Assembly (NCBI GenBank): GCA_903893485.1
Contig: CAITMK010000012.1
Coordinates: forward strand, 18,708-82,707
Reading direction: 5' to 3'
Length of the DNA stretch: 64,000 nucleotides
Source: Candidatus Magasanikiibacteriota bacterium
Lineage (GTDB): Bacteria > Patescibacteriota > Patescibacteriia > Magasanikbacterales > 2-02-FULL-50-9b
Notes under the pieces: generated by a model
Databases searched by the model: none
What the model was told of the DNA's origin: nothing
The model's input: the letters and a program-made list of their open reading frames with translations, nothing else
Made by a program: the position numbers and the translations under genes
Shown here: one piece after another, positions 2,054 to 58,446 of the stretch
How positions within the stretch are numbered: the first letter of the stretch is position 1
Layout: every line of letters begins with the position of its first letter

Positions 2054-2080
2054 AAAAAGCCCCGGAAACGGGGCTTTTTT
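2054..2080 (+). terminator. Rho-independent terminator after rpoC (aaaaagccccg-gaaa-cggggctttttt)
   Basis: GC-rich 6-bp stem with GAAA loop followed by a T6 run. An identical 27-mer recurs at 3653-3679. Confidence 0.8.
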
Positions 2081-2104
2081 GTATTATGATATACTGTAAA
2101 TAAT

Positions 2105-3640
2105 ATGAAAAAAGTTCTTTCAAAAATAATACTTCTAAGTATTTTAATAATGCCTGCGGCTGCGTATGCAGATACAACAGCTGCTAATCCTGGAATTGGG
2201 TATAATGATTTTACCCCAGCGGATAAGCAGGCGCTTACCACAGCATTACCAATGGCTGGTTTTGCTCAAAAAATGATAAGCCCTGCACAAGATGCAGCGC
2301 AGTTACGTGCATGGCATAATCCACAGATTTCAAATGGCCGCGTTGCAGTAGAGGAAACGGTTGTAAATGTTGTTGAAAGATCAAAACTGATTGATTCGAT
2401 TAAAGAAATGGTGCAGAAAGTTGCCGATCAATATCCAGATATGGCAGCCGCGACATCATCAAGTGAGATAGTTGCGGCACACCCAGAATTTGAATCTAAG
2501 TTTGCAGAAGTGTTGGCACACACATTTACGTTAGATGAATTGCAGCTTGAACAGGGAAGCGAAAAGATTCAAATTCATGTTTACAACTTACATAATCCAA
2601 AGGAAGAGTTTGTAATTCCAGCTCAAGATCATGAGTTACACTTGGGTATGATTAGGGCTCCGACGTGGTCACTCGGCCCAGCTGGATTAGCATGGATAGA
2701 TAATACCGTAAGTACCGATTCAAAAACGGTAACACAGAAAATTAATTATTTTGATTTTAAAACTAATAAGAATCGCATTCTTTTAACGCAACAGAATAAG
2801 AGTGATTCACGGATTAGTAATATCCAGGCTCAATATCAAACAATTGATCTGGCTTTTAACGGCGCAAAAGCTACAAGCGGAACCATTTTTGATCTTGTTC
2901 ACAATAAATCGATATTGGTAAATTTACCATTAAAACCAATTCAAGGCTTGTCTACAGAATCAGAATGGAATATCAAGTTATTGCGTGGTGTTATGAGTTT
3001 TGTCTCAGGCTCACATTATATTGCAAATATTGAAAAAATCGATAAAAATAGTTCGACCGTTCGACTGTTAAATATAACGACGGGTAAAACGAAAAAAATT
3101 ACAATTCCAGGCGCAATAAGTGCAGCACGTATTTATGGTGAAAATTTAGTTGCGACCGTATCCGATGGCCCAACCAATTTACTGACAAGTGTGTGGGAAT
3201 ATTCAATGCAAAAAAATAAAGCAAGAAAAATTTCTGTAACAGATCAGGGCGCAAAAATCACAGCACTTGAAGGTGATGAAATTATATTATTGCCAGCTAC
3301 TCGCACGGATAATTTTATTTTGCAGCTCATTGTAATGAATCGTTTGACAGGCAAAAACAAGGTGATGGCATATCCAAGTTCCACATATTCAATGTATAGT
3401 TATCGCGTTGAAACCGGTATTCAAAAAGCAACGGATGATTTGGCGAAACAATATGGCGTGGAAAATGTTTCGTTGAACGGTTATACAACAGGCGACTTTA
3501 TTGGTGTGCAAAAACCATCTTCAATTAAGACAAGTGATATTCAAGGTACATACTGGGCGCAACAGCTTGCAAGTCTTGAAAAAATGAAAATAGATTTGAT
3601 GAGTAGTATTTCAGCACTAACAATTTATTCAGCAAAATAA
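2105..3640 (+). CDS. hypothetical secreted protein (511 aa) with N-terminal signal peptide
   Basis: N-terminus MKKVLSKIILLSILIMPAAAYA looks like a Sec signal. No recognisable catalytic motifs. Preceded by TGaTATACTG at 2086-2095, 9 nt before the ATG. Confidence 0.6.
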   Translation: MKKVLSKIILLSILIMPAAAYADTTAANPGIGYNDFTPADKQALTTALPMAGFAQKMISPAQDAAQLRAWHNPQISNGRVAVEETVVNVVERSKLIDSIKEMVQKVADQYPDMAAATSSSEIVAAHPEFESKFAEVLAHTFTLDELQLEQGSEKIQIHVYNLHNPKEEFVIPAQDHELHLGMIRAPTWSLGPAGLAWIDNTVSTDSKTVTQKINYFDFKTNKNRILLTQQNKSDSRISNIQAQYQTIDLAFNGAKATSGTIFDLVHNKSILVNLPLKPIQGLSTESEWNIKLLRGVMSFVSGSHYIANIEKIDKNSSTVRLLNITTGKTKKITIPGAISAARIYGENLVATVSDGPTNLLTSVWEYSMQKNKARKISVTDQGAKITALEGDEIILLPATRTDNFILQLIVMNRLTGKNKVMAYPSSTYSMYSYRVETGIQKATDDLAKQYGVENVSLNGYTTGDFIGVQKPSSIKTSDIQGTYWAQQLASLEKMKIDLMSSISALTIYSAK

Positions 3641-3652
3641 TTTTTTGAAGGT

Positions 3653-3679
3653 AAAAAGCCCCGGAAACGGGGCTTTTTT
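3653..3679 (+). terminator. Rho-independent terminator, exact copy of the 2054-2080 terminator
   Basis: Same 27-nt sequence aaaaagccccggaaacggggctttttt. Confidence 0.8.
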
Positions 3680-3717
3680 GCATTGAACATTTTTTGTGTT
3701 CCTGGTATTATTATGCC

Positions 3718-4434
3718 ATGTCAGGGCATTCAAAATGGTCAACAATTCAAGCATCGAAAGGCGTTGCAGATAAGCGTCGTGCGGTTATTTTTGCAAAATA
3801 CGCGCGGCTAATTGCAATTGCTGCCAAAGAAGGTGGCGGGCCCGATCCTGTGAAAAATTTTAAATTACGCGTTGCGGTCGAAAAGGCGCGCGGCGTGAAC
3901 ATGCCAAAAGAAAACATTGATCGCGCAATCGCCAAAGGCGCGGGCACTGGCGGCGCCGATGATGTCGAGTCAGTTATGTACGATGGTTTAGGGCTTGGAG
4001 GCCGTCTTGCGATTTTAATCGAATGCGCAACAAACAACACAAATCGTTCTGTAGGAAATGTTAAAAATGCGCTGGTAAAGCAAGGCGCCGCAATGGGTGC
4101 ATCGGGCAGCGCAGCATGGATGTTTGATCGCCGCGGCGTGATTCGCGTTGACCAAAAAATTTCAGAAGATCAAGAACTGCAATTAATCGACGATGGCGCG
4201 GTTGATTTTATTGAAGAAGATGGCGGTACAACCATTTATACGCTCACTGAAAAATTTTGGATTGTGATGCAGCGGTTGGCAGAGTGGGGAATCGCAACGC
4301 AATATTCAGAACTTGATTGGGTTCCAAAAAATCCAGAACATTTTACCGAAGAAGAAAACGAAAAAATTCAAAAAATTATTGAAGCATTGGAAAGCACCGA
4401 AGACGTCGAAAGCGTTTACACAAATGCGGGATAA
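3718..4434 (+). CDS. yebC: YebC/PmpR family DNA-binding transcriptional regulator
   Basis: MSGHSKWSTIQ...KRRAVIFAKYARLI...GGGPDPVKNFKLRVAVEKARGVNMPKENIDRAI is the characteristic YebC N-terminus. Start chosen at the MSGHSKW Met. TGgTATTAT lies 6 nt upstream. Confidence 0.85.
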   Translation: MSGHSKWSTIQASKGVADKRRAVIFAKYARLIAIAAKEGGGPDPVKNFKLRVAVEKARGVNMPKENIDRAIAKGAGTGGADDVESVMYDGLGLGGRLAILIECATNNTNRSVGNVKNALVKQGAAMGASGSAAWMFDRRGVIRVDQKISEDQELQLIDDGAVDFIEEDGGTTIYTLTEKFWIVMQRLAEWGIATQYSELDWVPKNPEHFTEEENEKIQKIIEALESTEDVESVYTNAG

Positions 4435-4850: not shown

Positions 4851-4960
4851 GCCTTCCTCCCGAGGTTCCCGCCCAAAATGATTTAAGGGGGAAAGCCATT
4901 GTCTCACATCTGTGGGCGTTGTCAAGAGTGGTACTTTTTTGCTACTGTGTAAGTACAAAT

Positions 4961-5434
4961 ATGATTATTTTTGGAATTGACCCGGGCTATCATCGCGTTG
5001 GTTGGGGTGTGGTAGATCGCACAGGCCGAACGGTTACGGCGCAGGAATGGGGTTGTATTGAAACTAACCCAAAAGACGATTTGCCCGAGCGTCTTTTGCA
5101 AATTTATCAGGAAATTAAAGCGATTTTAAAAAAACATAAACCAGCGGCCGTGATTTTGGAAAAATTATATTTTGCGCAGAATACCACTACGGCACTTAAG
5201 GTTTCTGAGGCTCGCGGCGTGCTTTTGCTTGCAACTGCCGAGTTAAAAATCCCTGTTTTGGAGCTGACGAATTCTCAAATTAAGTCCGGTTTTACTGGGT
5301 TTGGCGGCGCTAAAAAATTTCAAATGCAAGAAATGGTTCGACTAGTTTTTGGTATGAAAGAAAAGATAACACCTGACGATGCGGCTGACGCGCTTGCCAT
5401 GGCATATGTGGGGGCTTGGCGTATTGGAAAATAG
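4961..5434 (+). CDS. ruvC: crossover junction endodeoxyribonuclease RuvC
   Basis: MIIFGIDPGYHRVGWGVVDR is the RuvC N-terminal motif; later acidic catalytic residues are present; ~157 aa. Confidence 0.85.
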   Translation: MIIFGIDPGYHRVGWGVVDRTGRTVTAQEWGCIETNPKDDLPERLLQIYQEIKAILKKHKPAAVILEKLYFAQNTTTALKVSEARGVLLLATAELKIPVLELTNSQIKSGFTGFGGAKKFQMQEMVRLVFGMKEKITPDDAADALAMAYVGAWRIGK

Positions 5435-5473
5435 ATTGACGGACGAGGTTTTCACCAGTAAGATACCCACAAT

Positions 5474-6883
5474 ATGAATAAGCCCGTAGTCATTATCGGT
5501 GCCGGCCCGGCTGGCCTTACTGCCGCCTCCGAGCTGGTGGATCGCGGCGTCCCTGTGATTATCCTGGAAAAAACTGGGCGTGTTGGCGGCATCGCCCGCA
5601 CTGACGAATACAAGGGATACCGCTTTGACATTGGCGGCCACCGTTTTTTTACGCGCGTGCCGTGGGTCATGGAATTTTGGAAAAAAATAATGGGCGACGA
5701 TTTTTTACGCCGTCCGCGCCAAAGCCACATTTATTATCGTCGCGAATTTTATACGTACCCAATTAAACCATTCGAAGCGCTCCGCAAATTTGGGTTCAAA
5801 GAATCGGTTATCGTAATGTGGAGTTTTGGTAAGGCACAATTGTTTAAGCGCCCAACCGAAGAAACATTTGAAGATTATATCGTTAATCATTTTGGCGAAC
5901 GATTATTTCATCATTTTTTTAAATCGTACACCGAAAAAGTGTGGGGAATTCCAACGAGCGAAATCCGCGCCGAGTGGGCAGCGCAGCGTATCAAAGGCAT
6001 GAGTATTTGGGGCATGTTAAAGTCCGCGCTTTTGCCAACAAGCAATAAATTTACATCGCTCATAGAAGAATTTTATTATCCACGGCTTGGTCCGGGCCAA
6101 ATGTGGGAAAAATTAGCGGCCAAACTTTTGGTCAGCGGTTTGGTTACATTGCATTACAATGCAGAGCCAACAATTTTGCATCACGAAAATGGTGAAGTCA
6201 CCAGTGTGACATATAAAATCGGAAAAATTTTACATACCACAGAATGTCGCGCGGTAATTTCAACCATGCCGCTGCGCGAATTGTTTCATATTTTTTCGCC
6301 AGCGTTGCCGCCAGATGCAATTACTGCCGCAGACCGATTGCATTACCGCGATTTTTTAACGGTTGCACTTATCATTAATAAGGCCGACATGTTTCCAGAC
6401 AATTGGATTTATATTCACGATCCAAATGTGCGCATGGGCCGCATTCAAAATTTTAAAAATTGGTCGCCAGAATTGGTGCCAGATCAAACTAAAACTTGTT
6501 TGGGTTTGGAATATTTTTTGTTCGATACCGAAAAAATGTGGCGTATGCCTGATCATGAATTGGTAAATATGGCCGCGCAGGAATTGGTGCGAATTGGTTT
6601 GGCAAAGCGGGCCGAAATTACGGATGGCTGCGTGGTGCGTATGCCAAAAGCATATCCAACCTACGATCCAGATTACGAAGCAGCAATGCCGCAAATTCGT
6701 GCGACGCTTGCAGAATTTAAAAACTTGTTTCCGGTAGGCCGCAACGGCATGCACAAATATAACAACCAGGATCATGCTATGGTTACGGCAAAATATGCCG
6801 TTGAAAATCTGTGCGATAATGCGGGCCACAACATTTGGGAAGTAAATGTTGAACGCGTATACCACGAACAGACAACGAAGTGA
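5474..6883 (+). CDS. FAD/NAD(P)-binding oxidoreductase (amine-oxidase/PPOX-like fold), 469 aa
   Basis: N-terminal dinucleotide-binding motif VVIIGAGPAGLTAA...ILEKTGRVGGIARTDEYKGYRFDIGGHRFF. Confidence 0.6.
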   Translation: MNKPVVIIGAGPAGLTAASELVDRGVPVIILEKTGRVGGIARTDEYKGYRFDIGGHRFFTRVPWVMEFWKKIMGDDFLRRPRQSHIYYRREFYTYPIKPFEALRKFGFKESVIVMWSFGKAQLFKRPTEETFEDYIVNHFGERLFHHFFKSYTEKVWGIPTSEIRAEWAAQRIKGMSIWGMLKSALLPTSNKFTSLIEEFYYPRLGPGQMWEKLAAKLLVSGLVTLHYNAEPTILHHENGEVTSVTYKIGKILHTTECRAVISTMPLRELFHIFSPALPPDAITAADRLHYRDFLTVALIINKADMFPDNWIYIHDPNVRMGRIQNFKNWSPELVPDQTKTCLGLEYFLFDTEKMWRMPDHELVNMAAQELVRIGLAKRAEITDGCVVRMPKAYPTYDPDYEAAMPQIRATLAEFKNLFPVGRNGMHKYNNQDHAMVTAKYAVENLCDNAGHNIWEVNVERVYHEQTTK

Positions 6884-7770: not shown

Positions 7771-7788
7771 TGCTACAATAAATCCACT

Positions 7789-8451
7789 ATGACAGAACAA
7801 AAATATGCAGTTGTAACGGGCGGCTCTGAAGGTGTTGGATTTGCCGTGGCGCAAATGCTCGCAGGCCATGGAATGCATGTAATCCTTTTAGCGCGCGACA
7901 AAGAAAAATTAGCTGCAGCTCATACGGCGCTCGGTGGCGGCGAAAATATTTCTGTTTTTAGCGTTGATGTTTCAAACGAGGGTGCGATTGCTGAGGTAAA
8001 AAATTATATCTCCGTTGTGACTGGCCAAATCGATGTATTAGTTAACGCAGCCGGTACGTTTCGTTGGGATCCGTCCGATATTAATTTAATGACACTGAAT
8101 GCTGATAGTAAAGAATTCATACTTCACGCGTTTCACGATTTGATTATTCCAGGAAGTTTTGTAATAAATATTAGTTCGCAAGCAGCGCTATTTGCGCCGG
8201 AAGATCCACGTCGCACGGGTGAAGAAGAATATGTTGCGTCAATGCAGCGCGTCGATGCTTTGTCAGCAGAATTTGCAGCGAAACATCCCGGAGTTCATGT
8301 GCATATTTCTCATCCACCACTGATGCGCGGTAAAATTGCGGAATCACAATTTCGCGGGCGTCCTGGCTTTGAAGATATAAATTTTGATACGCTTCCGGGT
8401 CCAGAAATTGTTGCCGATGAAATTGAAAAAGTCATTTTTGGAACGGTGTGA
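7789..8451 (+). CDS. SDR family short-chain dehydrogenase/reductase
   Basis: MTEQKYAVVTGGSEGVGFAVA is the TGxxxGxG cofactor motif; NAAG region; ~220 aa. Confidence 0.7.
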   Translation: MTEQKYAVVTGGSEGVGFAVAQMLAGHGMHVILLARDKEKLAAAHTALGGGENISVFSVDVSNEGAIAEVKNYISVVTGQIDVLVNAAGTFRWDPSDINLMTLNADSKEFILHAFHDLIIPGSFVINISSQAALFAPEDPRRTGEEEYVASMQRVDALSAEFAAKHPGVHVHISHPPLMRGKIAESQFRGRPGFEDINFDTLPGPEIVADEIEKVIFGTV

Positions 8452-9188: not shown

Positions 9189-9603
9189 TCGGTTCAAAGG
9201 CATTTGTGATGCGCGCCATTCGCTGGCTATAAGTCTCAGGATCATATTTGGTCGGGGTTCGTATGAGCTCAGCATTGTGTGTTTCTACAAGCGCTTTTGT
9301 AGCAGCCTCTGCTGTTACGTCTGCAGCAACTTTTTCTGCAGCAACTTCAGCGGCAGGCTTTGTTGACTGCTCCGCCTTGGTTATATATGAAGCCAGCCGA
9401 CTCAACTCTTCGGCATCATGAGGATCTTTTGCATCAAGTTTTAATTCTCCCAAAAGTTTTTGGGCTCGTGCAATTGCTTCTGGAGCGCGTGATTTTAAAT
9501 TTGGATTATTCGAGACATCATCAAGTGTTTGACGCATGCGGTCAACACGCATAAAAATGGCGGAAGGTTTGTTTGATAAAGTTTTCGGCGAATCCATAGA
9601 CAT
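9163..9603 (-). CDS. hypothetical protein with Ala/Glu-rich low-complexity C-terminal half
   Basis: ORF on the minus strand convergent with murI; the 3' ends overlap by 26 nt. Start chosen at MSMDSPK. Confidence 0.45.
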   Translation of the reverse strand: MSMDSPKTLSNKPSAIFMRVDRMRQTLDDVSNNPNLKSRAPEAIARAQKLLGELKLDAKDPHDAEELSRLASYITKAEQSTKPAAEVAAEKVAADVTAEAATKALVETHNAELIRTPTKYDPETYSQRMARITNAFEPTRDFGQAA

Positions 9604-9637
9604 ATAGATAAGTATACCATGCACCGATTATCCACAT

Positions 9638-9666
9638 TTGACATTCGGTTTCTGTTCGGTCATACT
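9638..9666 (+). promoter_or_regulatory. lexA promoter TTGACA-17-CATACT with a TTCGGT direct repeat in the spacer
   Basis: Spacer reads TTCGGTttctgTTCGGT, a possible operator. ATG of lexA is 10 nt downstream of the -10. Confidence 0.45.
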
Positions 9667-9675
9667 AAAATCACT

Positions 9676-10296
9676 ATGAAATCTACCATGCTTACCAAAA
9701 AGCAGTCAGAGCTGCTTGCCAAAATGGTCAATTTTTATAAAATGAACGATCGCGTGCCAACATATCGCGAATTGGCCGAGGAATTAGGTATTTCCTCGCC
9801 GGCAACCATTGCAGAGCACGTGTCTGGTTTGGTTAGTAAGGGTTTTTTAAAAAAAGTTGGCCAACAGATTGAGCTGACCATTAAAGCCTTTCAGCGGGGT
9901 AGTGCGGTGCGGATCCCACTTATGGGCCTCATTACCGCTGGTGAGCCAATTGAGGCCCTAGAAAACAGAGAGACAATCGTGGTACCATCTAACCTCGTCA
10001 TGGACGGAATGAATTCCTACGCGCTTAAGGTGCGCGGCGACTCCATGATCGAAGAAGGCATTTTTGACGGTGACTTTGTAGTGGTAGAACGCACGAATCG
10101 CCCACACGATGGTGATGTGGTTGTTGCGCTTTTAGACAATACCTATGCCACGCTCAAAAAGTTTTACCGCGAGAAAAATCGTATTCGTTTGCAACCGGCA
10201 AATAAACGCCTTAAGCCTATTTTTGTTAAAGATTGTATTATCCAAGGGGTTGTTCGTGGCGTAATTCGCACATTCAGAACTGCCGGAACGTTTTAA
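9676..10296 (+). CDS. lexA: LexA repressor (S24 peptidase)
   Basis: N-terminal winged-HTH (LTKKQSELLAKMVNFY...PTYRELAEELGISSPATIAEHVSGLVSKGFL). C-terminal S24 domain with GDSMIEEGIFDGDFVVVE (Ser nucleophile) and a downstream Lys. Confidence 0.85.
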   Translation: MKSTMLTKKQSELLAKMVNFYKMNDRVPTYRELAEELGISSPATIAEHVSGLVSKGFLKKVGQQIELTIKAFQRGSAVRIPLMGLITAGEPIEALENRETIVVPSNLVMDGMNSYALKVRGDSMIEEGIFDGDFVVVERTNRPHDGDVVVALLDNTYATLKKFYREKNRIRLQPANKRLKPIFVKDCIIQGVVRGVIRTFRTAGTF

Positions 10297-11489: not shown

Positions 11490-11522
11490 TTGATTTGACA
11501 GTCCATTTCAGGGGGGGGTAAA
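11484..11522 (+). promoter_or_regulatory. promoter TTGACA-18-TAAAAT containing a G8 homopolymer in the spacer
   Basis: aTTGACAgtccatttcaGGGGGGGGTAAAATg lies upstream of the 11564 gene. Confidence 0.4.
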
Positions 11523-11563
11523 ATGCTCATATTAGTAATGTTGGAACATTTAATCATAATAAT

Positions 11564-11875
11564 ATGGCATTTGACGGAAAAAGAGCAGAGGATATTGCTG
11601 CGGTTGCAGAAGAGGCAAAAGTTGAAGGAGAAGGTATTTGGACAAATTCAGATGGTTCTGAAACTCCAAAGCAAAAGATTCTCAATTTGAAGCAGCATAT
11701 CATTTCATATGAAAAACAATATGCAGTGAATATGGATGCAGCAATTGCGGACCCAACAGATTCGGAAGCTCTAGAATTGGCGGAGTTGGCGACAAAGAAA
11801 CTTGCGAAACTTCATGAAGAATTAACGGCGTTAGAGGCAGCGCATGCAAATCGTGTTGAAGAGGCTTTAAAGTAG
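11564..11875 (+). CDS. hypothetical small acidic coiled-coil protein (103 aa)
   Basis: ORF with a downstream terminator; no recognisable motifs. Confidence 0.5.
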   Translation: MAFDGKRAEDIAAVAEEAKVEGEGIWTNSDGSETPKQKILNLKQHIISYEKQYAVNMDAAIADPTDSEALELAELATKKLAKLHEELTALEAAHANRVEEALK

Positions 11876-11926: not shown

Positions 11927-11965
11927 TATATTGACCAAACCGTAAAAATAGCATAAGCTATTCCC

Positions 11966-14552: not shown

Positions 14553-14593
14553 ATGCATTAGTATACCCGATTTTCTGATATAATGTCTTCACT

Positions 14594-16505: not shown

Positions 16506-16510
16506 TTTAA

Positions 16511-16562
16511 ATAAAAAATGCCTCCAGTAACCTTCCGAAATTAAACGGCTGGTTTCTGGAGG
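16511..16562 (-). terminator. intrinsic terminator read on the minus strand, possibly bidirectional for fba
   Basis: cctccag...ctggagg stem followed by T6 on the minus strand. Confidence 0.6.
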
Positions 16563-16992
16563 TCTTGTGACTTGTTAGTCTTTGGTATCGTCAACCTATC
16601 GGCTGAAAATCCCATTAACACCCATTTCCGCTTTGTCAAAGGCGGATTTTCCCCATCTGTTATTATCACCACGGACGCAGCGATCTTTCTGTGGGAGGTG
16701 TGAGGACGCACACCATGCATCTCTGCTTCATTTTTTATTCCGCAGTAAGCGCGGAAAAGGAGTCGTCGGGTATTGTACCCGCTGACTATACCTGGTAACC
16801 CTCCGCTCCCTACTCTCCCTTGGTTGATACGCCAAGGTTTTCAGGTTAAGAAGTTGGGCTTTGGCATCAGCGTAGCGCTGACAAACTGTTGGCCAAGAGC
16901 TGCGGATATGGCGCTCAATCCGGCATTACGCCAGGTAACCCCACTATCGCACGCATGCGCGTGCAGTTAACGGCCCTAAGGCAGGTCAACTT
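16563..16992 (-). ncRNA. candidate ~480-nt structured non-coding RNA of unknown class
   Basis: No ORF >70 aa on either strand. A minus-strand TTGACAAAA-17-TATTTT promoter lies at plus 16999-17027 and the terminator at 16511-16562. Multiple perfect local hairpins (gcacgcgcatgcgtgc, cgggtattgtacccg). GC is elevated relative to flanks. Confidence 0.4.
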
Positions 16993-16998
16993 GTGTAT

Positions 16999-17027
16999 AA
17001 AATATCAAAAGACGGTGATTTTGTCAA
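16999..17027 (-). promoter_or_regulatory. sigma70-like promoter gggggTTGACAAAA-17-TATTTT driving the candidate ncRNA
   Basis: Reverse complement of 16999-17027. Same 'TTGACAAAA' -35 context as the cassette C, E and H promoters. Confidence 0.45.
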
Positions 17028-19823: not shown

Positions 19824-19835
19824 AGTGTATTGAGT

Positions 19836-42912: not shown

Positions 42913-42984
42913 AGCCCATACTGTATCAAAAGGGTCCCGCGTATGTCAAGCATGTGATATACTGAGCGCAACATTCTTTGACCT

Positions 42985-50528: not shown

Positions 50529-50583
50529 GTTCCCATCTATCGCTCTTGACGAAAAACCCCCACTTTGCTAAACTAGTCCCACT

Positions 50584-50943
50584 ATGGAACTTCACCCAGA
50601 AATCCGCCCGGGCGCTTTCATCCGCGTACACCAGGCGATCAAAGAAACAACGCCAAAAGGCGAAGTAAAAGAACGTATTCAGATTTTCGAAGGTTTGGTG
50701 CTTAAGCGCTCACACCGCAAGGAAATTGGTGCGACTATTATTGTGTACAAAAAATCAGGCACTGTTGGTGTGGAAAAAATCTTTCCACTCAACTCTCCAA
50801 CTATCAAAAAGTTTGAGTTTGTACGCCAGTACAAAGTAGCCCGTGCAGATATCTCATTTGCAAAGGACACTCACAAGAAATTGAAAGAATTGCGCGCTCC
50901 AGGAACCGCTAAGCCAAAAGCTAAGGTTGCAAAAGCAAAATAA
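50584..50943 (+). CDS. rplS: 50S ribosomal protein L19
   Basis: IQIFEGLVLKRSHRKEIGATIIVYKKSGTVGVEKIFPLNSP matches the conserved L19 core. Confidence 0.85.
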   Translation: MELHPEIRPGAFIRVHQAIKETTPKGEVKERIQIFEGLVLKRSHRKEIGATIIVYKKSGTVGVEKIFPLNSPTIKKFEFVRQYKVARADISFAKDTHKKLKELRAPGTAKPKAKVAKAK

Positions 50944-50956: not shown

Positions 50957-50990
50957 AAAAGCCCTGGTGAAAGCCGGGGCTTTTTTGTAT
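50957..50990 (+). terminator. intrinsic terminator agccctgg-tgaaag-ccggggc + T6
   Basis: Stem-loop followed by a T-run. A related copy with compensatory base changes is at 51764-51800. Confidence 0.75.
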
Positions 50991-51002
50991 ACTGATCAAC
51001 AT

Positions 51003-51752
51003 ATGATTTGGGATCCGATCACTCTAAAACAAGAAGATGAGCTGCGCGCTGCGACAAACAGCTGTCTAGCTGCAAATAAAAAAACGCCAACGATTGCATT
51101 GCGCGTTGCAGGAGTAGACATTGTCCTATTTGCGATATTTCTTTTTTGGGCTCACACAAGTACACTCACCTCTGATGTAATTTGGGATATAAGCATTTTT
51201 TTATTATTTATCCCCATCATGTGTTTGGCTGCTTGGGTGCAATCAAATGATAATGTGACTTTTATGACCGTGCGTCTTGCCCACGGTTGGGATGTCATCA
51301 CCAATCCAGATAAACAGCGATTCCGTGATTTAAATGCTAAATATAATTTTTTGATACCACGTGATACTCTAAAAAGAGGTGAGGGGGCTTACGTATGCCG
51401 TAATGAAATTTGGGGTAAGGCATCGCAAACAAGTTTCTTTTCGTGCCAAATTGATTATGCATGCGGTGGTAACAGAATCACAGCTGCTGAATCTCGACAA
51501 TTACTTTTTGTAAAATTACCTGCGCCACAAAAATCAATAAAAACAGATGGTGATTTTGACATTTCAATCCTGAGTTCTGCAGCTCAGGCGGCATGGAATG
51601 ATTTGACTGCACAATGTGGTAAGACCAAATTTATTATTGAAAATGACCTTGCGGCAATTAGCACGTTAACGGGATTCCTAAAGTTAGGGACACCGGAAAA
51701 AATTGAAGAAGTGTGTGTTAAAATTTTGGCATTAGCTGCTGCGCTTGTATAA
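51003..51752 (+). CDS. hypothetical membrane protein (249 aa)
   Basis: TGTATACTG box 9 nt upstream of the ATG. Two TM segments near the N-terminus. Confidence 0.5.
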   Translation: MIWDPITLKQEDELRAATNSCLAANKKTPTIALRVAGVDIVLFAIFLFWAHTSTLTSDVIWDISIFLLFIPIMCLAAWVQSNDNVTFMTVRLAHGWDVITNPDKQRFRDLNAKYNFLIPRDTLKRGEGAYVCRNEIWGKASQTSFFSCQIDYACGGNRITAAESRQLLFVKLPAPQKSIKTDGDFDISILSSAAQAAWNDLTAQCGKTKFIIENDLAAISTLTGFLKLGTPEKIEEVCVKILALAAALV

Positions 51753-51820: not shown

Positions 51821-54193
51821 CTAAAATTTATACATTGAAATCTTAGCCACATTAATAAGTCCTTTCATAAAGTCTGACTTATACTGCTGAAGCGTTTTAA
51901 TTGCGCGCGCAATTTCAAGTGGATCATTTTTTTGAACAGGCGCTTCGGTCATAGTTACTTTGTCATCTTTCACTTTGGTAACAATTTGATTTCCCGCAAC
52001 GCCGATGTAAGTCGAAGACTTGAAATCAATTGCGTATTGCAATGGATCGCCGCCAGCAAGCGGAAGAATTACTAAAGAATCTGGTTGACTAATCTTAAAG
52101 ACTAAACGGGCACCATCAAATGAAAGCAGCTCTCGCTCAGAATGCTTTTGAAGAATTGGCGGTAATGGAATTTCAGTGGTTACGAAATTTTTTAGGTCAA
52201 CTTGTGCATAGGTATTGCCATCACTCATGACTGCGGTATCCCCATATAGTTTAATTGTTCTGATCTGTCCGTAAAAAGGGTACCCCAGTTCTTTGCCCGT
52301 ATTCATGTCGAGCACATGCAGCGCCGGTGCGTTTGTGGTGGTATCAAAAAGTGCCCACGCAATATAATGAGAACCGCCCACCACTGTTGTCAGCATTTGA
52401 TTTTCTCCTACATTATCCGATTGTAGCTGCTTAACGAGCTTACCGGTTTTTGTATTCCAAGCGCTATATGCCGTAATGCCACTTTTTGAATGAGTTTCTA
52501 ATATTAATGATTGATATTCGGCATGCACGGTAAAGCTTAAAAGATCTGCCATGTTGGCTGCGGTGATTTTTTGTACGACCGTATCTTTTTTTGTGGCAAA
52601 ATCGTACCAATGTACCTCGCCGGTTGTTATTTTTTTAGCGGTTACCACACGAAACCATGCGAGGCCGGTTGGACCAACACTCCAAGGTTTCGTGGAATTA
52701 AGTTGCGGCATCCCGATTGTTGGAATTGTAAAATTCTTACCGGTACTTATTTTATGTACAATGATTGATTGAGTGGAAGTTACTCCGCCAAAGGCATTCG
52801 CTATGAGCGCGCCACCTGCACTAGCGACTGTCCCCATTAGTTTATTAAAAACATCGGGATGGGTTTTCAAGTAATCATTTGCGGCCGCTTGAGTTTTAAT
52901 ACTTTTTGGAACCGTTGCACTAAGTTTTTGTAAGCCGCTGGTAAGCGTATTAAAAAACTTTGTAGTATCTTTTGCCGAGACCAGTGGTACGTTTGCAGCG
53001 ATCACATCATTGGCTACATCAAAATCCCCGTACTCTGCGATTGTCCCTTTGGGACCTGGTGGAACAGTCCACAATGAAACAGGTAAACTTGAAGCCCCGG
53101 GAATATCGCTGGTCTGCTGAAGTTTTTGTAGCGTCGCATCATCAATGCTGTTGTCACATTGAATCGTTTTGTATCGAAGGCCATTTGAGTCTGCCCAATA
53201 GATATATGGACCGGTTAGAACCGCATGACTTGCATTTTCAATGCCATCAGCCTTAGTAAAATTTGTAGGACAAGACATCTGCGTTGACTCGTTGAAGAAA
53301 TTATATACAGAACCTTGTTTCCATAGCAGGCCAGAATCACCTGAAAGAAAATATGAAGCTTTCGCGTCATTAATTACAACAGGAGCAATGGTTTTGGTAT
53401 CCATGGCGACTCGGTAATAACCATTATTCAAGTACAATGGATTTTCGACGTAGAATGATGACTTATCTGCCATGGATAAGAATTTTAAAACACCCTCTGT
53501 CTGTATGAATGCCGTATAATCAATTGTGGTCGCTGCGGTATCGACAAATCGGCGAAATACGATTGTGTGATTATTTATATCGCTCGCTGCGATATAATCA
53601 GGCCCGATAACAAAATTTGTATTGCCCGCTTGATCTACCACGTCAACATCAGGATCTTGTAGAAAATCAGCAACACTTTGCGTCTTATTTTGCGCAACAT
53701 CAAGGACTTCATACGTTTGGGTGTCCGTACTATAGACTGCAAACTTTCCATCTACGGATGCAGCAACCTCACCCAAAAGAGTATCTGATGATTTTGCGAT
53801 AAGTTGCGAGACTTTTTTACTTGTAAAATCGTATTGATATATGCCGGATGTTGCATCTTTGCTTCCCCAAATGACGGTGTTGTTTGTAATCGCTGCGTTT
53901 GAGAGCTCGTATAGCGGATCTGAAATTGGCGCAAAACTACCGGTGCCTACATCGGTCATCATGAGTTGGCCATCTGGATGAGTTGAAACAAATGGGGATT
54001 GGCCGCTAGGACTTGTGAACCAAACAACATGTGAACCAAATGCAGCCCAATCGTTTGCAGGGTCCTGTTGAAATCCACTTTGCGTTCCGTAGCCAGCAAC
54101 CGGAGTTGCAGTAGTTGCGGCAATTGCGGATGCCGTTGGCAATAATAATGAAATAACGGTGAAGAGCGAAACGAAAGAGCTTTTTTTAAACAT
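51821..54193 (-). CDS. hypothetical large secreted protein (790 aa)
   Basis: Signal peptide MFKKSSFVSLFTVISLLLPTASAIAA. Repetitive beta-rich composition. Confidence 0.5.
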   Translation of the reverse strand: MFKKSSFVSLFTVISLLLPTASAIAATTATPVAGYGTQSGFQQDPANDWAAFGSHVVWFTSPSGQSPFVSTHPDGQLMMTDVGTGSFAPISDPLYELSNAAITNNTVIWGSKDATSGIYQYDFTSKKVSQLIAKSSDTLLGEVAASVDGKFAVYSTDTQTYEVLDVAQNKTQSVADFLQDPDVDVVDQAGNTNFVIGPDYIAASDINNHTIVFRRFVDTAATTIDYTAFIQTEGVLKFLSMADKSSFYVENPLYLNNGYYRVAMDTKTIAPVVINDAKASYFLSGDSGLLWKQGSVYNFFNESTQMSCPTNFTKADGIENASHAVLTGPYIYWADSNGLRYKTIQCDNSIDDATLQKLQQTSDIPGASSLPVSLWTVPPGPKGTIAEYGDFDVANDVIAANVPLVSAKDTTKFFNTLTSGLQKLSATVPKSIKTQAAANDYLKTHPDVFNKLMGTVASAGGALIANAFGGVTSTQSIIVHKISTGKNFTIPTIGMPQLNSTKPWSVGPTGLAWFRVVTAKKITTGEVHWYDFATKKDTVVQKITAANMADLLSFTVHAEYQSLILETHSKSGITAYSAWNTKTGKLVKQLQSDNVGENQMLTTVVGGSHYIAWALFDTTTNAPALHVLDMNTGKELGYPFYGQIRTIKLYGDTAVMSDGNTYAQVDLKNFVTTEIPLPPILQKHSERELLSFDGARLVFKISQPDSLVILPLAGGDPLQYAIDFKSSTYIGVAGNQIVTKVKDDKVTMTEAPVQKNDPLEIARAIKTLQQYKSDFMKGLINVAKISMYKF

Positions 54194-54273
54194 AATACCG
54201 CCAGTATACTAGAGCTAAATAAAAATAAATAGCCATTGTTGGTTTATGATATTATTTGTATACTGATCGACAT

Positions 54274-55038
54274 ATGAAAAAACTCATCGCCTTATTGAGC
54301 ATTATTTCAGCATTTACATTTTGTTCAACCGCGCTTGCCTCTAATGGATATCCTGCACATACCTATACGTATGTGAATGATTTTGCCAAAGTGCTCACAC
54401 CAGATGACATTAATACATTGCAATCGCAGCTTTCAAAATTTGATACTGATAATGATGTTTCAATTATTGTGGCGACCGTGAATTCAATTCAAGATTATCC
54501 AACGGGCGACCAAACAATTGAATCATTTGGAATGAATTTGTTTAATAACTGGGGCGTCGGCAGCGCAAAAAAAAATAATGGCGTACTTATGTTGGTTGCG
54601 GTTAAAGATCGTAAAATTCGCATTCAACTTGGTTCGGGATACGGATCATCGTATGATGCTACGATGACGAAAATTATTGCGAGTGACATGTCGCCATCTT
54701 TTAAAGCGGGGCAGTTTGGTGCAGGCTTCAGACTCGGCGCTGCATCGGTTATGAATGTGGTGGGGGTTGCAAATCGTGTGCTAACACCAGAAGAGAAAAA
54801 AGCGGCAATGGTAAAAACTTATGTAGTCATGGGCGGTATCGCAATCTTATTGATTGTGCTTATTGCCGCGGCGATCTCCGCCTTTCGTTCGGGCAAAACA
54901 GGTTGGGGTTGGATATTTTTGGCAGCTATTGGCGCGATAATTTGGTTTTTATTTCGATTAATGCCAAACGGACGTGGTGGCGGTGGCGGATATGGCGGTG
55001 GCTCGTCATCGGGTGGTGGTGGATCAGGTAGTTTTTAA
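54274..55038 (+). CDS. TPM-domain (YgcG-like) protein with C-terminal TM helix and Gly-rich tail
   Basis: TPM-like core YVNDFAKVLTP...VSIIVATVNSI...GVLMLVAVKDRKIRIQLGSGYG, then a TM helix and GGGGGYGGGSSSGGGGSGSF tail. TGTATACTG box upstream. Confidence 0.55.
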   Translation: MKKLIALLSIISAFTFCSTALASNGYPAHTYTYVNDFAKVLTPDDINTLQSQLSKFDTDNDVSIIVATVNSIQDYPTGDQTIESFGMNLFNNWGVGSAKKNNGVLMLVAVKDRKIRIQLGSGYGSSYDATMTKIIASDMSPSFKAGQFGAGFRLGAASVMNVVGVANRVLTPEEKKAAMVKTYVVMGGIAILLIVLIAAAISAFRSGKTGWGWIFLAAIGAIIWFLFRLMPNGRGGGGGYGGGSSSGGGGSGSF

Positions 55039-55076: not shown

Positions 55077-55700
55077 TTAGGGGTTTGGCACTTCCGGCCG
55101 GCCCAAAATAATGTCTGAGTGTGCCCAATCGATGCGCCAGCCGCGTAGATAAACAGCTCCGAGAATTCGTTGCAGAATTTCCTTTGCTCGTTGATCTTTT
55201 GGATGTCTGAGCGAAGTAATCCGAATCACGAAATGTTCGCGCCGCGATGGTTTGCTTAGGGTCTCTACGGTAATTTGGGCGCAACCGATCTTTGCCCACT
55301 GAGGTTGGAGTTCTGGGGCGGCGTAACGGACGCTCACCGGTATGCGGTTAGCCACAGCCTCGACATCGGCAAGACTTGGCATAGGGAAACGCGTCGTATC
55401 GGCCTGTGCAAAATGGTACACGTCGGTGTTTACTTTTTTGAGGATGGCAATTTCTACCGGGACTGATCCTGGAAGAAGGATGATTTCGTCAGAGAAGTCT
55501 TGTGACTCAACATCGCTTGGCAGGCCAACCTCGACACACTTTGCAAAGCCGGCCCTAATAAATGGAGCCTGCAGGTGCGGCGGAATTGCCGAGAGCAACT
55601 TTGAGTTGTCGCCTGGTGCGCATGGTTCGCGCGTTGCAAAAAATTGCTTTAAAGGCACCTCGCTTGAAGCGGGCACCACGAAATAGGTACGCCAGTTCAT
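55077..55700 (-). CDS. hypothetical protein (207 aa), GC-elevated cassette G
   Basis: AGGAGGTG Shine-Dalgarno 5 nt before the ATG, with TAACGT immediately after the cca stop. ~54% GC. No recognisable motifs. Confidence 0.45.
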   Translation of the reverse strand: MNWRTYFVVPASSEVPLKQFFATREPCAPGDNSKLLSAIPPHLQAPFIRAGFAKCVEVGLPSDVESQDFSDEIILLPGSVPVEIAILKKVNTDVYHFAQADTTRFPMPSLADVEAVANRIPVSVRYAAPELQPQWAKIGCAQITVETLSKPSRREHFVIRITSLRHPKDQRAKEILQRILGAVYLRGWRIDWAHSDIILGRPEVPNP

Positions 55701-55725
55701 GAGACACCTCCTGAACGCAACGTTA

Positions 55726-57204
55726 CTACTGTTTTTTCAAAAAGTCAATCGCCTGGAGTTTAGTTGAAAGTTTGCCACTGAGCTGCGCTTCGCGAAGTAA
55801 TTCCAAAAGTTCACCAACGCGTGGGCCCGGTGCGATTTTAAGAGCCGACATAATTTCAGTGCCGTCTAAAAGTGGCTCAATTACTTTTTGCATGGGACCG
55901 CGGCCACGCAGTAATTTTTTGACGCGCGCCAAAACAGCATGCACATGTTTTTTCTTTGGAAAACCAGCAGATGGAATGGTTGCGGAGCCATCGCTAAAAA
56001 GCATGGTCAATAATTCGCGGCCCGCATTTAGGTCACGCACAAAATATTTTTCAATCGTAGTTTCTTTTAAATCTGCAACATCAGCTTGCACCGCGAGTAG
56101 GTGATGATCGATGAGCCACACGGCCAAATCAACATCAACATTACAACCTTCCACGGATGATAGTTTTAAGCGTTCCATGATTTGCCGACCAACGCGCCCG
56201 CCAACAACATCGTGGCCGGTGAATCGAATGCGATCGACACCGTCTTTTTTTGGTGTTTGAATGGTTAATGGTTTTGCGACGTCGTGCAAAAGTGTTGCAA
56301 TGTACTGTGTTGGCGTTGCTTTGAGCGGCGCTTTATAAATGCGCGGCAGCAATTTAATAAAGCGGCGATATGGCGTGCCATGCAAATTTGAAACTGCAAC
56401 AACGGTATGTTTCCACACGTCGCCTTCGCTATGATAATTTTTTGGCTGTGGGCATTTGTGCATTGTCAAAAGTTCTGGTGCTACTGTGGCGAATGCACCA
56501 AACTTATCCCAGAGTTCCATGAATCGCGCCGGATTTGCAATCAACGATTTCATAAATTCACGACCAACTAATTCGTATGGCACCAAGCGTTCACCGTTTT
56601 TGGTAACGTCATTTACGCGTGGCATTAATTTTTTCATGGCAGCGGCAGTTTTTGGTTCAATTGCAAAATTCAGCTGGCACGCAAAGCGCAACCCACGTAA
56701 AATGCGCGTGTAATCTTCTTGAAAACGTTCGGCCGGCTTGCCGACCGCGCGCAATTTTTTGGCGCGCAAATCAGCGCGGCCGCCAAAGGGGTCGATGAGT
56801 TTATCGGTTGCCAAATCAAGTGCAATTGCATTAATGGTAAAATCTCGACGTGCTAAATCTTTTTCGATTGGTAGGGTGTGTGCGGCATAAACTTCAACAT
56901 CGCGATAGGCGCCCGTGCCACCTGGAACTTCGGTGCGGGGAAGCGCGATATCGATTTGCGCGCCGCCTTTTTGCGGCGCAAATTTAATTACACCAAACGT
57001 TTTGCCAACCACATCAACGGATCCATAAGTTTCCAAAAAAGAAATCAAATCTTCGAGTGGTACGCCGCGCACCACTAAATCAACATCCTTACTTGGGCGA
57101 CGCAGCAAAATATCGCGCACCATGCCGCCAACCAAAAAAATCTGCGCATCAGGATATGCGCGCAGCAGCGGTTTTGCCCATGAAAATTTAAGTCCATGTT
57201 TCAT
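55726..57204 (-). CDS. cca: CCA tRNA nucleotidyltransferase / poly(A) polymerase family with HD domain
   Basis: Pol-beta-like motif IFLVGGMVRDILLRRPSKDVDLVV, followed by a head domain and an HD-like C-terminal region. Confidence 0.75.
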   Translation of the reverse strand: MKHGLKFSWAKPLLRAYPDAQIFLVGGMVRDILLRRPSKDVDLVVRGVPLEDLISFLETYGSVDVVGKTFGVIKFAPQKGGAQIDIALPRTEVPGGTGAYRDVEVYAAHTLPIEKDLARRDFTINAIALDLATDKLIDPFGGRADLRAKKLRAVGKPAERFQEDYTRILRGLRFACQLNFAIEPKTAAAMKKLMPRVNDVTKNGERLVPYELVGREFMKSLIANPARFMELWDKFGAFATVAPELLTMHKCPQPKNYHSEGDVWKHTVVAVSNLHGTPYRRFIKLLPRIYKAPLKATPTQYIATLLHDVAKPLTIQTPKKDGVDRIRFTGHDVVGGRVGRQIMERLKLSSVEGCNVDVDLAVWLIDHHLLAVQADVADLKETTIEKYFVRDLNAGRELLTMLFSDGSATIPSAGFPKKKHVHAVLARVKKLLRGRGPMQKVIEPLLDGTEIMSALKIAPGPRVGELLELLREAQLSGKLSTKLQAIDFLKKQ

Positions 57205-57273
57205 GGCTCTATCGTAGCGCAAAAGTACTTGATTGTCCACCCCACGGACGTGGTATACTACGCGCAACTTTTT

Positions 57274-58179
57274 ATGCAGAATTTGTCTTTTAAAAAACAA
57301 GGACGCCAATATCATATTTTTTTGAATGATACCGAAATTGCGGTTGCACCAGAATTTGTATTTCCAGATTCAGAAGCAGCTGACCCCACAATTGAATTGC
57401 AATCAAATCAAGAAGGTTTTGTTGTGGGCAATGAGGCGATTTACCTAATTGAGCCAAAAGCAACGGTGACGTTTTTGTACAATGGCGTTCCCGCAGCGCA
57501 CATGCCGCTTTCGCAGTTTATGATGCCGGGAAATTATACGTTTTCAGATGCGGGGCATCATTCTGCCGCGATTGAAAAAGGTTTTGATAAATTATTGGAT
57601 CGAATGTATGCGCTCGCGGAGCGCGCCGGCGCAGATCCTTCGGTGGTTGAACTTTTTGATGCAGAGACGGGGCCGGTTGATTTACAAAACGCTGCCGAAG
57701 AGATCGGGCAGCGAATGTTGGTTGCTGAAAAAGATGAAGCGCTGAAAAATAAAATTACGCAGGCTTTTGCAAAATTAGGTAAAATTAAATTTTTGCCAAA
57801 ATCGTTAGGCATGGATCAAACGCAGGACAATCGTGAAATTATAAATCGCTATGCTGAGACGTTTAAAATATTTCGAGAAATAAAAGAAGATTCTGCTGCA
57901 GAAGCGGTAAAAGCATATCCACATAAAAATGAACTGTACGTTATTTTTGAACGCGCGCCAGAACTGCTGGAAACGCATGTGCGTGTAGCTGTCGCCGAAA
58001 ATTACAAAGAGTATCGACACCAAGAAGAATTGCTTACAGGAATTGATTTGGCAGCACTTAAAGAAATTAGAGCGGATCAAAAGGGAATGGCCACCGCAGA
58101 AAAAACGGAATTACTTAGGGGTGCAACGGAGCCTCAGAAGGTGAATGAAATTGAGGCGTCCCTTGGTTCAAGAAAGTGA
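57274..58179 (+). CDS. hypothetical protein (301 aa)
   Basis: TGgTATACT box 14 nt upstream; divergent from cca. Confidence 0.45.
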   Translation: MQNLSFKKQGRQYHIFLNDTEIAVAPEFVFPDSEAADPTIELQSNQEGFVVGNEAIYLIEPKATVTFLYNGVPAAHMPLSQFMMPGNYTFSDAGHHSAAIEKGFDKLLDRMYALAERAGADPSVVELFDAETGPVDLQNAAEEIGQRMLVAEKDEALKNKITQAFAKLGKIKFLPKSLGMDQTQDNREIINRYAETFKIFREIKEDSAAEAVKAYPHKNELYVIFERAPELLETHVRVAVAENYKEYRHQEELLTGIDLAALKEIRADQKGMATAEKTELLRGATEPQKVNEIEASLGSRK

Positions 58180-58336
58180 TCTTGAAGGTTTGAGGGGTAA
58201 CGTGGTAAAGTGCAGGCGTTCAAAAACGTATTCTCTTCGGGCCGTAGATACTTCGCGCACGTTGTGCGCTCGTCGCTACTGGCCCTCCAGTCGAAGACAA
58301 CTTCAAATGCACGCATTTGAATTGTCGTCTCCTTAC

Positions 58337-58410
58337 GGGCCAGTAGCTCAGTTGGTGAGAGCACGGTGCTTATAACGCCGGGGTCCTGGGTTCGAGTCCC
58401 AGCTGGCCTA
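58337..58410 (+). tRNA. tRNA-Ile (anticodon UAU)
   Basis: Acceptor GGGCCAG/CTGGCCT (G1·U72), D-arm GCTCAGTTGGTGAGAGC, anticodon stem CGGTG/CGCCG with loop CTTATAA, T-arm CTGGGTTCGAGTCCCAG. CCA not encoded. Confidence 0.7.
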
Positions 58411-58412
58411 TA

Positions 58413-58446
58413 TAAAAATACCACCCATTTGGGTGGTATTTTTATA
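58413..58446. terminator. bidirectional terminator aaaataccaccc-attt-gggtggtatttt
   Basis: Perfect 8-bp stem flanked by A- and T-runs. Confidence 0.8.

Follow-up and report, generated by a model that had tools for sequence, protein, structure and literature searches.

Promoters and gene starts in the window

The DNA analysed here, referred to as the window, is a 64-kb stretch (64,000 nucleotides, about 45% GC) of Candidatus Magasanikiibacteriota bacterium contig CAITMK010000012.1, and the subject of the analysis is the set of promoters that precede its genes. Pfam annotation of about 60 open reading frames (ORFs) provided the gene map from which start codons were chosen. The curated set comprises 37 promoters, 32 protein-coding genes heading transcription units and 48 gene starts, the latter being used to count Shine-Dalgarno (SD) sites. 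Spacing (d) is expressed as the number of bases from the last T of the -10 hexamer to an ATG that opens at least 80 codons. A -35 box was considered good when it matched at least 5 of 6 positions and was located 17-18 bp from the -10 box, and 17 promoters contain one. The -10 box was found to lie very close to the start codon: d is exactly 9 in 12 of the 32 genes that come first in their operons, and does not exceed 12 in 21 of them, all of which start with ATG.

Several promoters with d = 9 include a -35 hexamer (the figure between the two boxes is the spacer length). They precede an amine oxidase gene (gene 5474; 5436..5476, +; TTGACG-17-TAAGAT), lexA (9676; 9638..9678, +; TTGACA-17-CATACT, followed by aaaatcACT), trxB (19823; 19821..19861, -; TTGCAA-17-TAAACT, caatacACT), a class Ib aminoacyl-tRNA synthetase gene (trpS/tyrS, 36430; 36428..36468, -; TTGTCA-17-TATAAT, cctcctACT) and rplS (50584; 50546..50586, +; TTGACG-17-TGcTAAACT, agtcccACT). 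At the same distance, a -10 box, with or without its TGn extension, precedes genes for a 511-aa signal-peptide protein (2105; 2087..2107, +; TGaTATACT, no -35), a short-chain dehydrogenase (7789; 7771..7791, +; TGcTACAAT, aaatccACT), PfkB (14594; 14576..14596, +; TGaTATAAT, gtcttcACT), the transketolase N-terminal subunit (tktN, 18872; 18870..18890, -; TGcTATACT, gtaaggACT), a 249-aa hypothetical protein (51003; 50988..51005, +; TATACT), a 790-aa secreted hypothetical protein (54193; 54191..54208, -; TATACT) and a TPM-domain protein (54274; 54259..54276, +; TATACT).

The modal class is therefore 9 nt, and six genes fall in the strict leaderless range of 6-8 nt: yebC (3683..3720, +; TTGAAC-17-TGgTATTAT, 6 nt), the RNase H-like 475-aa protein gene 11966 (11931..11968, +; TTGACC-17-TAAGCT, 6 nt), secG (42910..42949, -; TTGACA-18-TGaTACAGT, 7 nt), the genes for a 146-aa (9603; 9601..9619, -; TGgTATACT, 7 nt) and a 385-aa hypothetical protein (14552; 14550..14565, -; TATACT, 7 nt), and pepA (21374..21414, +; TTTGCA-18-TAGGAT, 8 nt). 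Distances of 11-12 nt are found at a wbaP-type sugar transferase gene (33434..33476, -; TTGACG-17-TACAAT, 11 nt), a 168-aa hypothetical gene (34971; 34951..34973, +; TGtTATACT, 11 nt) and ruvC (4919..4963, +; TTGTCA-18-TGcTACTGT, 12 nt); all these genes start with ATG. Longer spacings precede the ATG of a 301-aa hypothetical gene (57251..57276, +; TGgTATACT, 14 nt), a 380-aa gene (63876-63924, -; TTGACC-17-TAAGAT, 17 nt), rpiB (20906..20937, -; TGcTATAAT, 20 nt), a dsbA-like gene (42955..42987, +; TGaTATACT, 21 nt) and a 103-aa hypothetical gene (11495..11566, +; TTGACA-18-TAAAAT, 39 nt), the last three without an SD site. A 207-aa hypothetical gene (55698..55748, -; TTGACT-17-TAACGT) has a leader with an AGGAGG SD located 6 nt before its ATG.

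The first-pass annotation of this DNA had listed seven TGnTATACTG sites, 7-14 nt upstream of an ATG, as a leaderless class. Four of them are exact (TGNTATACTG, at 2087+, 18881-, 34951+ and 42955+; 0.16 expected, and no shuffle reached 4). The shorter TATACTG occurs 9 times in the window against 2.6 expected, one copy, at 54202 (-), being absent from that list although the ATG of the 790-aa gene follows it at 9 nt. The other three listed sites are variants: those placed at 50991 and 54262 read TTGTATACTG, with the TG out of the extended -10 register, and that at 57251 reads TGGTATACTA. The site placed at 42936 is found at 42955, about 19 nt off. Measured from the hexamer end to the ATG, the distances at 2087, 18881(-), 34951, 42955, 50988, 54259 and 57251 are 9, 9, 11, 21, 9, 9 and 14 nt; the claimed range holds at six of the seven and fails at dsbA (42985), with 21 nt. 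That these seven sites lack both a -35 box and an SD is correct in every case. Long leaders with SD sites had also been ascribed to secG, wbaP and lexA, where the -10 box actually ends 7, 11 and 9 nt before the ATG and no SD is present.

Some of these promoters are packed against the terminator of the preceding unit. An identical 26-nt intrinsic terminator, AAAGCCCCGGAAACGGGGCTTTTTTG, is located at 2056-2081 and at 3655-3680, and the promoter of the next gene (2105 and yebC, respectively) begins directly after each; packing is very compact at both places, the T-run doubling as the upstream flank of the promoter. A terminator hairpin occupies the -35 position at the -35-less promoters of genes 2105, 7789 (terminator 7732-7760) and 51003, and at ruvC in the related contig L082.

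Spacing between the -10 box and the start codon in related genomes

Relatives of the window were available at several distances. UvrA (46400-49237) is 81-84% identical to that of loci L001, L003, L004 and L008, labelled Candidatus Magasanikbacteria or Magasanikiibacteriota, and its neighbours are syntenic; in the metagenome contig L082, gene order matches that of window positions 1-25 kb, with proteins 55-85% identical. These matches place the organism in the Candidate Phyla Radiation (CPR)/Patescibacteria. Proteins of the window recur in ENA assemblies ERZ1426703 and ERZ1426586. A more distant set comprises about 0.9 Mb of loci encoding the nearest TktC relatives (identity of 63% or less), presumably CPR, and 893 kb of non-CPR loci served as a control.

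For the spacing statistic we used a broad motif, TGnTAnnnT or TA[TAC]A[AC]T. It gives 10 pairs at d = 9 in the window against a background of 2.0 (Poisson p=4.6e-5), and 12 pairs against 1.7 in the close relatives (p=2.9e-7), these 12 coming from some six separate genes (rplS from four genomes, tktN from three and trxB from two, besides three others). Of the 45 TATA[AC]T sites in the window, 7 have d = 9. The other CPR loci peak at d = 6 (71 pairs against a background of 18, p=5e-21), with 45 pairs at d = 7, and loci from metagenome-assembled genomes (MAGs) labelled Saccharibacteria (L021, L023) likewise peak at d = 6. No comparable peak was found in the non-CPR loci, where the highest value (at 1 nt, 36 over a background of 23) is marginal. 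The 9-nt mode is thus particular to this lineage, the other CPR loci showing the canonical leaderless spacing of 6-7 nt. Random placement of the motifs relative to start codons had been named beforehand as an outcome that would speak against leaderless starts; placement proved to be non-random, with a sharp 9-nt mode both in the window and in its relatives. We also considered whether the 9-nt spacing might come from a mis-registered -10 box. This was rejected, as no TAnnnT is found 3 nt beyond the assigned hexamer and the register is set by the TGn extension.

Individual promoters are conserved in the same manner. At rplS, compared in five genomes (the window and L001-L004), TTGACr, the 17-nt spacer, TGnTAnAcT, the 9 nt and the ATG are all kept, while the 14 bases that separate the boxes are entirely different. 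The 9-nt spacing of tktN and of trxB is kept in L081, L082 and L083, with TAAACT of trxB also retained in L082 and L083. The TGn extension is conserved at the tktN, dsbA and rplS orthologs. For secG, d is 7 in the window, 8 in L001 and 7 in L008; the dsbA-like gene keeps TATACT in L001 (14 nt) and L008 (21 nt), and the rpiB ortholog of L082 shows the same 20 nt. Small shifts were also observed between the window and L082: from 9 to 8 nt at lexA and at the short-chain dehydrogenase gene, from 12 to 9 nt at ruvC (TGtTACAAT in L082), and from 6 to 7 nt at gene 11966 (TTGACG-17-TATTGT in L082).

These data bear on the trivial explanation that TATA-like words arise by chance in AT-rich DNA, or that starts were mis-called and the true ones lie elsewhere, behind ordinary leaders. 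The gene starts are indeed predictions, and a low-stringency generic promoter scan of the window was not enriched (35 hits against 39 in shuffled sequence), its top hits agreeing with the curated promoters. However, the spacing peaks rise far over background in the window and, independently, in the relatives, and are absent from the 893 kb of non-CPR DNA; spacing and boxes are kept at orthologous promoters though the spacers diverge; and signal peptides and Pfam boundaries fit the chosen ATGs. We regard an artefact of this kind as extremely improbable.

Two further observations concern the relatives themselves. MAGs L002, L005, L015, L022 and L025 are titled 'uncultured Gammaproteobacteria', and their UvrA is 57-81% identical to that of the window, L002 being syntenic as well; these taxonomic labels look wrong. 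A block at 50950-55720, lying between rplS and the gene for the CCA-adding enzyme, has no counterpart in L001, L003 and L004, which are otherwise syntenic. Its four genes encode the 249-aa hypothetical, the 790-aa secreted, the TPM-domain and the 207-aa hypothetical proteins; three of them read TATACT-9 nt-ATG and the fourth has a strong SD.

Promoter elements, strong promoters and non-coding transcripts

The first-pass annotation had proposed two distinct promoter grammars: a native, -35-less TGnTATACTG class giving leaderless mRNAs, and a -35-containing class, with the recurring 9-mer TTGACAAAA, for which a common origin or a dedicated sigma factor or regulator was suggested. In its full form, this model has different sigma factors or regulators reading the two classes, the second being of common or foreign origin and serving long-leader transcripts with SD sites. 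Promoters of the form TTGACA-17/18-(-10) are real, at 17027(-), 20953, 33819, 36462, 63929, 9638 (lexA), 11495, 42949(-) (secG) and 40964(-) (tRNA-Leu). Five of them are intergenic copies of TTGACAAAA with a full-consensus arrangement (-35 box plus A-tract, 17-nt spacer, and TGn in four of the five), and all five drive RNAs or long leaders.

One drives the RNase P RNA gene (rnpB; 33856-34255, +), from TTGACA-17-TGgTGTAAT at 33819-33847. This is the transcript previously noted as a candidate non-coding RNA; it is an RNA gene, and its identity is given by the Rfam match to RF00010 class A, with 125.5 bits against a threshold of 100 and covering model positions 1-367 of 367. ORFs 33549-34025, 34052-34252 and 34252-34890 (+) overlap or abut it, show no Pfam matches where tested, and are probably not genes.

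The second drives nc1 (16510..17027, -; TTGACA-17-TGaTATTTT at 16999-17027), a transcript of about 480 nt with a terminator near 16515. The region 16510-16992 contains no ORF and its fold has z=-5.6 relative to shuffles; the predicted transcript is a structured RNA candidate, as yet unclassified. The third belongs to nc2 (20953..21385, +; TTGACA-17-TGaTTAAAT at 20953-20981), of about 390 nt, with a terminator near 21375. Region 20990-21385 has 61% GC in a genome of 45%, and holds a 36-aa ORF (21094-21204) with a basic C-terminus behind a perfect AAGGAGG. It is possible that nc2 is a small-protein gene that was acquired, or else an RNA with a dual function. Rfam returned no family for nc1 or nc2, either over the whole window at gathering score or by E-value over 16400-21500. 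Both are absent from the syntenic contig L082, which has no room for nc1, and we take them on this ground as lineage-specific insertions.

The fourth promoter (36462..36586, +; TTGACA-17-TGgTATGCT) precedes a GC-rich hypothetical gene, with a leader of about 90 nt, a GGAGGA SD and an ATG at 36584. BLASTN of nc1, nc2 and the 36462 leader against 160 loci gave no homologs. The segment 36584-38267 is the most GC-rich of the window (about 54%), with long overlapping ORFs on both strands, no Pfam matches and no counterpart in L001; with its consensus promoter, long leader and SD, it may be acquired DNA. The fifth, at 63929-63957 (+; TTGACA-17-TACAGT), has a leader of about 70 nt and serves a gene outside the window. 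Long leaders combined with strong SDs had been attributed to the GC-rich cassettes, and were confirmed at the 21094 ORF, 36584 and 55700(-) only, within GC-rich or variable segments.

The proposal of two classes can draw on this predilection for RNAs and long leaders, on the GC-richness of nc1 and nc2 and their absence from L082, on the GGCGGnTCTTGACAAAA common to the 20953 and 36462 promoters, and on the fact that a consensus -10 hardly ever coexists with a good -35. The composition of the promoters argues otherwise. Good -35 boxes precede 8 of the 21 genes with short spacing and 4 of the 11 with longer leaders (Fisher p=1.0), so its presence is independent of leader length. TTGACA/G/C at 17-18 bp is also found, conserved in relatives, at near-leaderless lexA, secG, rplS, trpS/tyrS, wbaP, the amine oxidase gene and gene 11966. 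Both groups include core genes conserved in relatives, and TGn and TAnnnT geometry are common to both. As a 9-mer, TTGACAAAA is not enriched: the window has six copies against 2.8 expected, one of them (34984) within coding sequence, and 8 of 100 shuffles reached six. A repeat search among its contexts, looking for a common cassette, found likeness in the promoter boxes only, which tells against a common origin. A dedicated sigma factor would be expected to show a distinct consensus or geometry and an unshared set of targets, and neither was found, the geometry being that of the near-leaderless core-gene promoters. The A-tract following the -35 box is also present at rplS, wbaP and gene 11966, and an A/T-tract beside the -35 is a general spacer feature (PMC12641261). 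Two promoter classes of this kind are therefore very improbable. The TTGACAAAA set is a recognisable subclass of strong promoters, mostly with G+C-rich discriminators, for which neither a dedicated sigma factor nor a common origin is required.

The near exclusion of consensus -10 and good -35 boxes has another reading. Of the 20 promoters that lack a good -35, 14 have a consensus -10 (TATA[AC]T), against 1 of the 17 that possess one (p=1.2e-4); TGn is found in 13 of 20 and 8 of 17, respectively (21 of 37 overall). The better -10 boxes of -35-less promoters are a case of classical compensation among elements read by one sigma factor. TTGACA-like and TAnnnT hexamers 17±1 bp apart, as expected for sigma-70/sigma-A, are found in 17 promoters, and the TG at -15/-14, one base before the hexamer and able to replace a -35 box, identifies extended -10 promoters. 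As in such promoters elsewhere, TG one base before TAnnnT substitutes here for a weak or absent -35, and there is no difference in kind; lesser conservation of the -35 where the TGn extension is present is a known trade-off (PMC12641261). Unlike in usual extended -10 promoters, the hexamer preferred here is TATACT, not TATAAT, and several promoters use the T-run of a terminator as upstream flank.

We propose that a single sigma-70/sigma-A-type holoenzyme would read four modular elements: a -35 box TTGACA, often with an A-tract, a 17-18 bp spacer, the TGn extension and a -10 box TA(T/A/C)A(A/C)T. Where the -35 is missing, a near-perfect TATA(A/C)T, usually with TGn, would compensate, and where it is good a degenerate -10 would be tolerated. 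Promoters of stable RNAs and long leaders would combine all the elements, in most cases together with a G+C-rich discriminator.

The latter resemble known stable-RNA promoters. Those of rnpB, tRNA-Leu(CAG) (40817..40964, -; TTGACA-18-TGcTATAGT at 40935-40964), nc2 and 36462 possess a full -35, TGn and G-rich discriminators (GCGCGGG, ATTGAGG, GCTCGGT). E. coli rrnB P1 starts 9 bp after its -10 box and has a G+C-rich discriminator; similarly, three of these four promoters have a possible start 9-10 nt downstream. The set differs from the stable-RNA class in that the window has no rRNA operon and in that GC-rich, non-conserved transcripts are included.

Several of the strong promoters stand back-to-back with another one, 20953 with rpiB and 63929 with the 380-aa gene. 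At 36462 the G-rich flank forms the spacer of the divergent trpS/tyrS promoter, and the TTGTCA of the latter overlaps TTGACA by 5 bp; at 63929 the flank contains the -35 of the divergent 63878(-) promoter, and at 20953 it overlies the rpiB promoter region. The idea that this flank always corresponds to a common palindromic -35 of divergent promoters holds at 36462/36430(-) (17-nt spacer), is doubtful at 20953/20908(-) (19-nt spacer) and is inapplicable at 17027(-), and was dropped.

The lexA promoter spacer contains a direct repeat, TTCGGT-N5-TTCGGT, at 9644-9660. TTCGGT-N5-TTCGG(T) is also found in the lexA promoter spacer of L082 (16481-16496) and, in L012 (19874-19938, -; two copies) and L022 (19013-19028, -), in the spacers of promoters that precede a RecA-like gene (N-terminus ...LAIAQIRDRFGEG). 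We consider this motif a candidate LexA operator (SOS box) of the lineage.

Start of transcription and initiation of translation

Unambiguous SD sites were found at 3 of the 48 curated starts, the small ORF at 21094, 36584 and 55700(-), a proportion close to the random one (4.5% per 15-mer). In about two thirds of the transcription units, 6-12 nt separate the -10 box from the ATG, too few to accommodate an SD, and this placement is the unusual feature of the system. Within operons, most genes overlap the stop codon of the gene before them or directly adjoin it, and they carry no SD. Two other CPR loci (L086, L141) have an intact anti-SD, and recD in L082 carries AAGGAGG. The reading of leaderless or short-leader translation, already put forward by the first-pass annotation, is a natural one: an extended -10 lies directly before many ATGs, and the spacing is statistically strong and conserved in relatives.

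The distance from the -10 box to the transcription start centres on 7 bp across 49 species (PMC12641261), and we infer that transcription would begin here too at the usual 7th or 8th nucleotide. Among the 29 nine-nucleotide spacers examined, 17 have A and 5 have G at position 7, 18 have C at position 8 and 25 have T at position 9. Operon-internal starts seldom have C at -2. T directly precedes the start codon in most genes, including about 13 of 17 operon-internal ones without an adjacent promoter, so that T at -1 is a general start-codon context and not a transcription signal. Most leadered promoters have a pyrimidine-purine step at positions 6-8, and helix P1 of RNase P RNA, which begins at position 7-9, can pair from 33854, the 7th nucleotide after the -10 box. 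At the CPR loci with d = 6, the 7th base is the A of the ATG and follows a pyrimidine in 50 of 63 cases; this is the canonical leaderless arrangement. With the spacer consensus nnnnnnACT|ATG and its conserved A as the start, the modal mRNA would be 5'-ACU-AUG, leaders overall would span 0-3 nt, and translation would be of the leaderless type, from a 5'-proximal AUG and without SD pairing.

An alternative is that RNA polymerase starts at the 10th nucleotide after the -10 box, behind a 9-nt discriminator and on the A of the AUG, the mRNAs being truly leaderless as in Actinobacteria and Deinococcus. The sharp peak at d = 9 with its tail to longer spacings has the same shape as the 6 > 7 > 8 series of other CPR, positions 9-11 read T-A-T in 25-27 of the 29 spacers, and CTA is located at positions 8-10 in the nc2, rnpB and 36462 promoters. 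A start at position 10 is, however, unworkable for the five well-formed promoters of the window with 6-7 nt (yebC, 11966, secG, 9603(-) and 14552(-)), since it would fall inside their coding sequences, and secG, with a 6/6 -35 box and TGn, keeps 7-8 nt in L001 and L008. The shifted start leaves the conservation of A7-C8 unexplained and does not agree with the step at positions 6-8 of most leadered promoters; the T at -1, as said, precedes most operon-internal starts too. We judge a register shifted by 3 bp unlikely, and favour, with some reserve, a predicted 5'-ACU-AUG mini-leader.

Several points weigh against our interpretation. The pyrimidine-purine step is more uniform at positions 9-10 (T before ATG in 25 of 29) than at 6-7, and the strong nc2, rnpB and 36462 promoters have their best step at 9-10. 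The 3-nt leader derives from predicted start sites, and the curated gene starts from ORFs, Pfam domain boundaries and ortholog alignments. The sample consists of the 64-kb window and about 97 kb from relatives, several of whose promoters are mutually orthologous. The trade-off between -35 and -10 boxes is inflated by ascertainment, as a -35-less promoter can be recognised only if its -10 is strong.

Taking these points into account, we consider it likely that one housekeeping sigma factor serves the window and that its mRNAs are near-leaderless, with predicted leaders of 0-3 nt and 5'-ACU-AUG as modal 5' end. A further proposition, to which we give even chances, is that the dominant mRNA, being neither leadered nor leaderless in the strict sense, has a fixed mini-leader of 3 nt (5'-ACU-AUG), that is, one codon, evolved from the leaderless 6-7 nt spacing of other CPR. 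This would point to an adaptation, specific to the lineage, in how the reduced CPR ribosome initiates. If the mini-leader is real, initiation might require a filled E-site codon or a certain initiating sequence. The shift from 6-7 to 9 nt between related lineages would offer a natural experiment on the 5' nucleotides tolerated in leaderless-type initiation and on how the start-site register is set.

The architecture itself is known. GeneMarkS-2 places in its group C, mainly Actinobacteria and Deinococcus-Thermus, genomes with a Pribnow box near the start codon of leaderless genes, the box lying 6-8 nt from the start in M. tuberculosis (PMC6028130). The window resembles group C genomes such as M. 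tuberculosis and D. deserti in having a -10 box at a fixed short distance from many first-gene starts, with no SD and with ATG. It differs in its 9-nt mode, which implies either that the leader has about 3 nt or that the start site is shifted; in that internal genes mostly lack SD sites as well, whereas other genes of group C genomes use them; and in that CPR/Patescibacteria are not among the clades reported in PMC6028130. Scarcity of SD sites is also a feature of SD-independent Bacteroidota and of Parcubacteria without an anti-SD. The mRNAs of the former are leadered, with A-rich upstream regions, whereas here the leader itself appears to be missing. As for the latter, a study that does not discuss leaderless mRNAs detected the anti-SD in no more than 48% of Parcubacteria (Tsurumaki et al. 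2022, PMC9297842); the present case differs in that two other CPR loci, L086 and L141, have it intact and three strong SDs are present in the window. Our literature search found no paper joining leaderless mRNAs with CPR, Patescibacteria, Saccharibacteria or Parcubacteria. What is new, as judged from predicted promoters, is the occurrence of this architecture in a CPR phylum-level group and the fixed 9-nt spacing of this lineage.

Automatic annotation, with start models that rely on SD sites, is the rule for nearly all CPR genomes. If transcription units are for the most part leaderless or near-leaderless, with a promoter box in the place expected for a ribosome-binding site, start-codon calls, operon boundaries and plans for heterologous expression in CPR need to be revisited; should the leaders prove ordinary, the finding reduces to a compositional curiosity. 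The result also gives a testable handle on translation initiation on the reduced CPR ribosome, taking into account that some CPR have no anti-SD (PMC9297842).

A minor observation concerns the decoding of AUA. ARAGORN identified a tRNA-Ile with anticodon UAU at 58337-58410 (+). In most bacteria AUA is read by a CAU tRNA modified with lysidine; a tRNA-Ile with anticodon UAU is rare.

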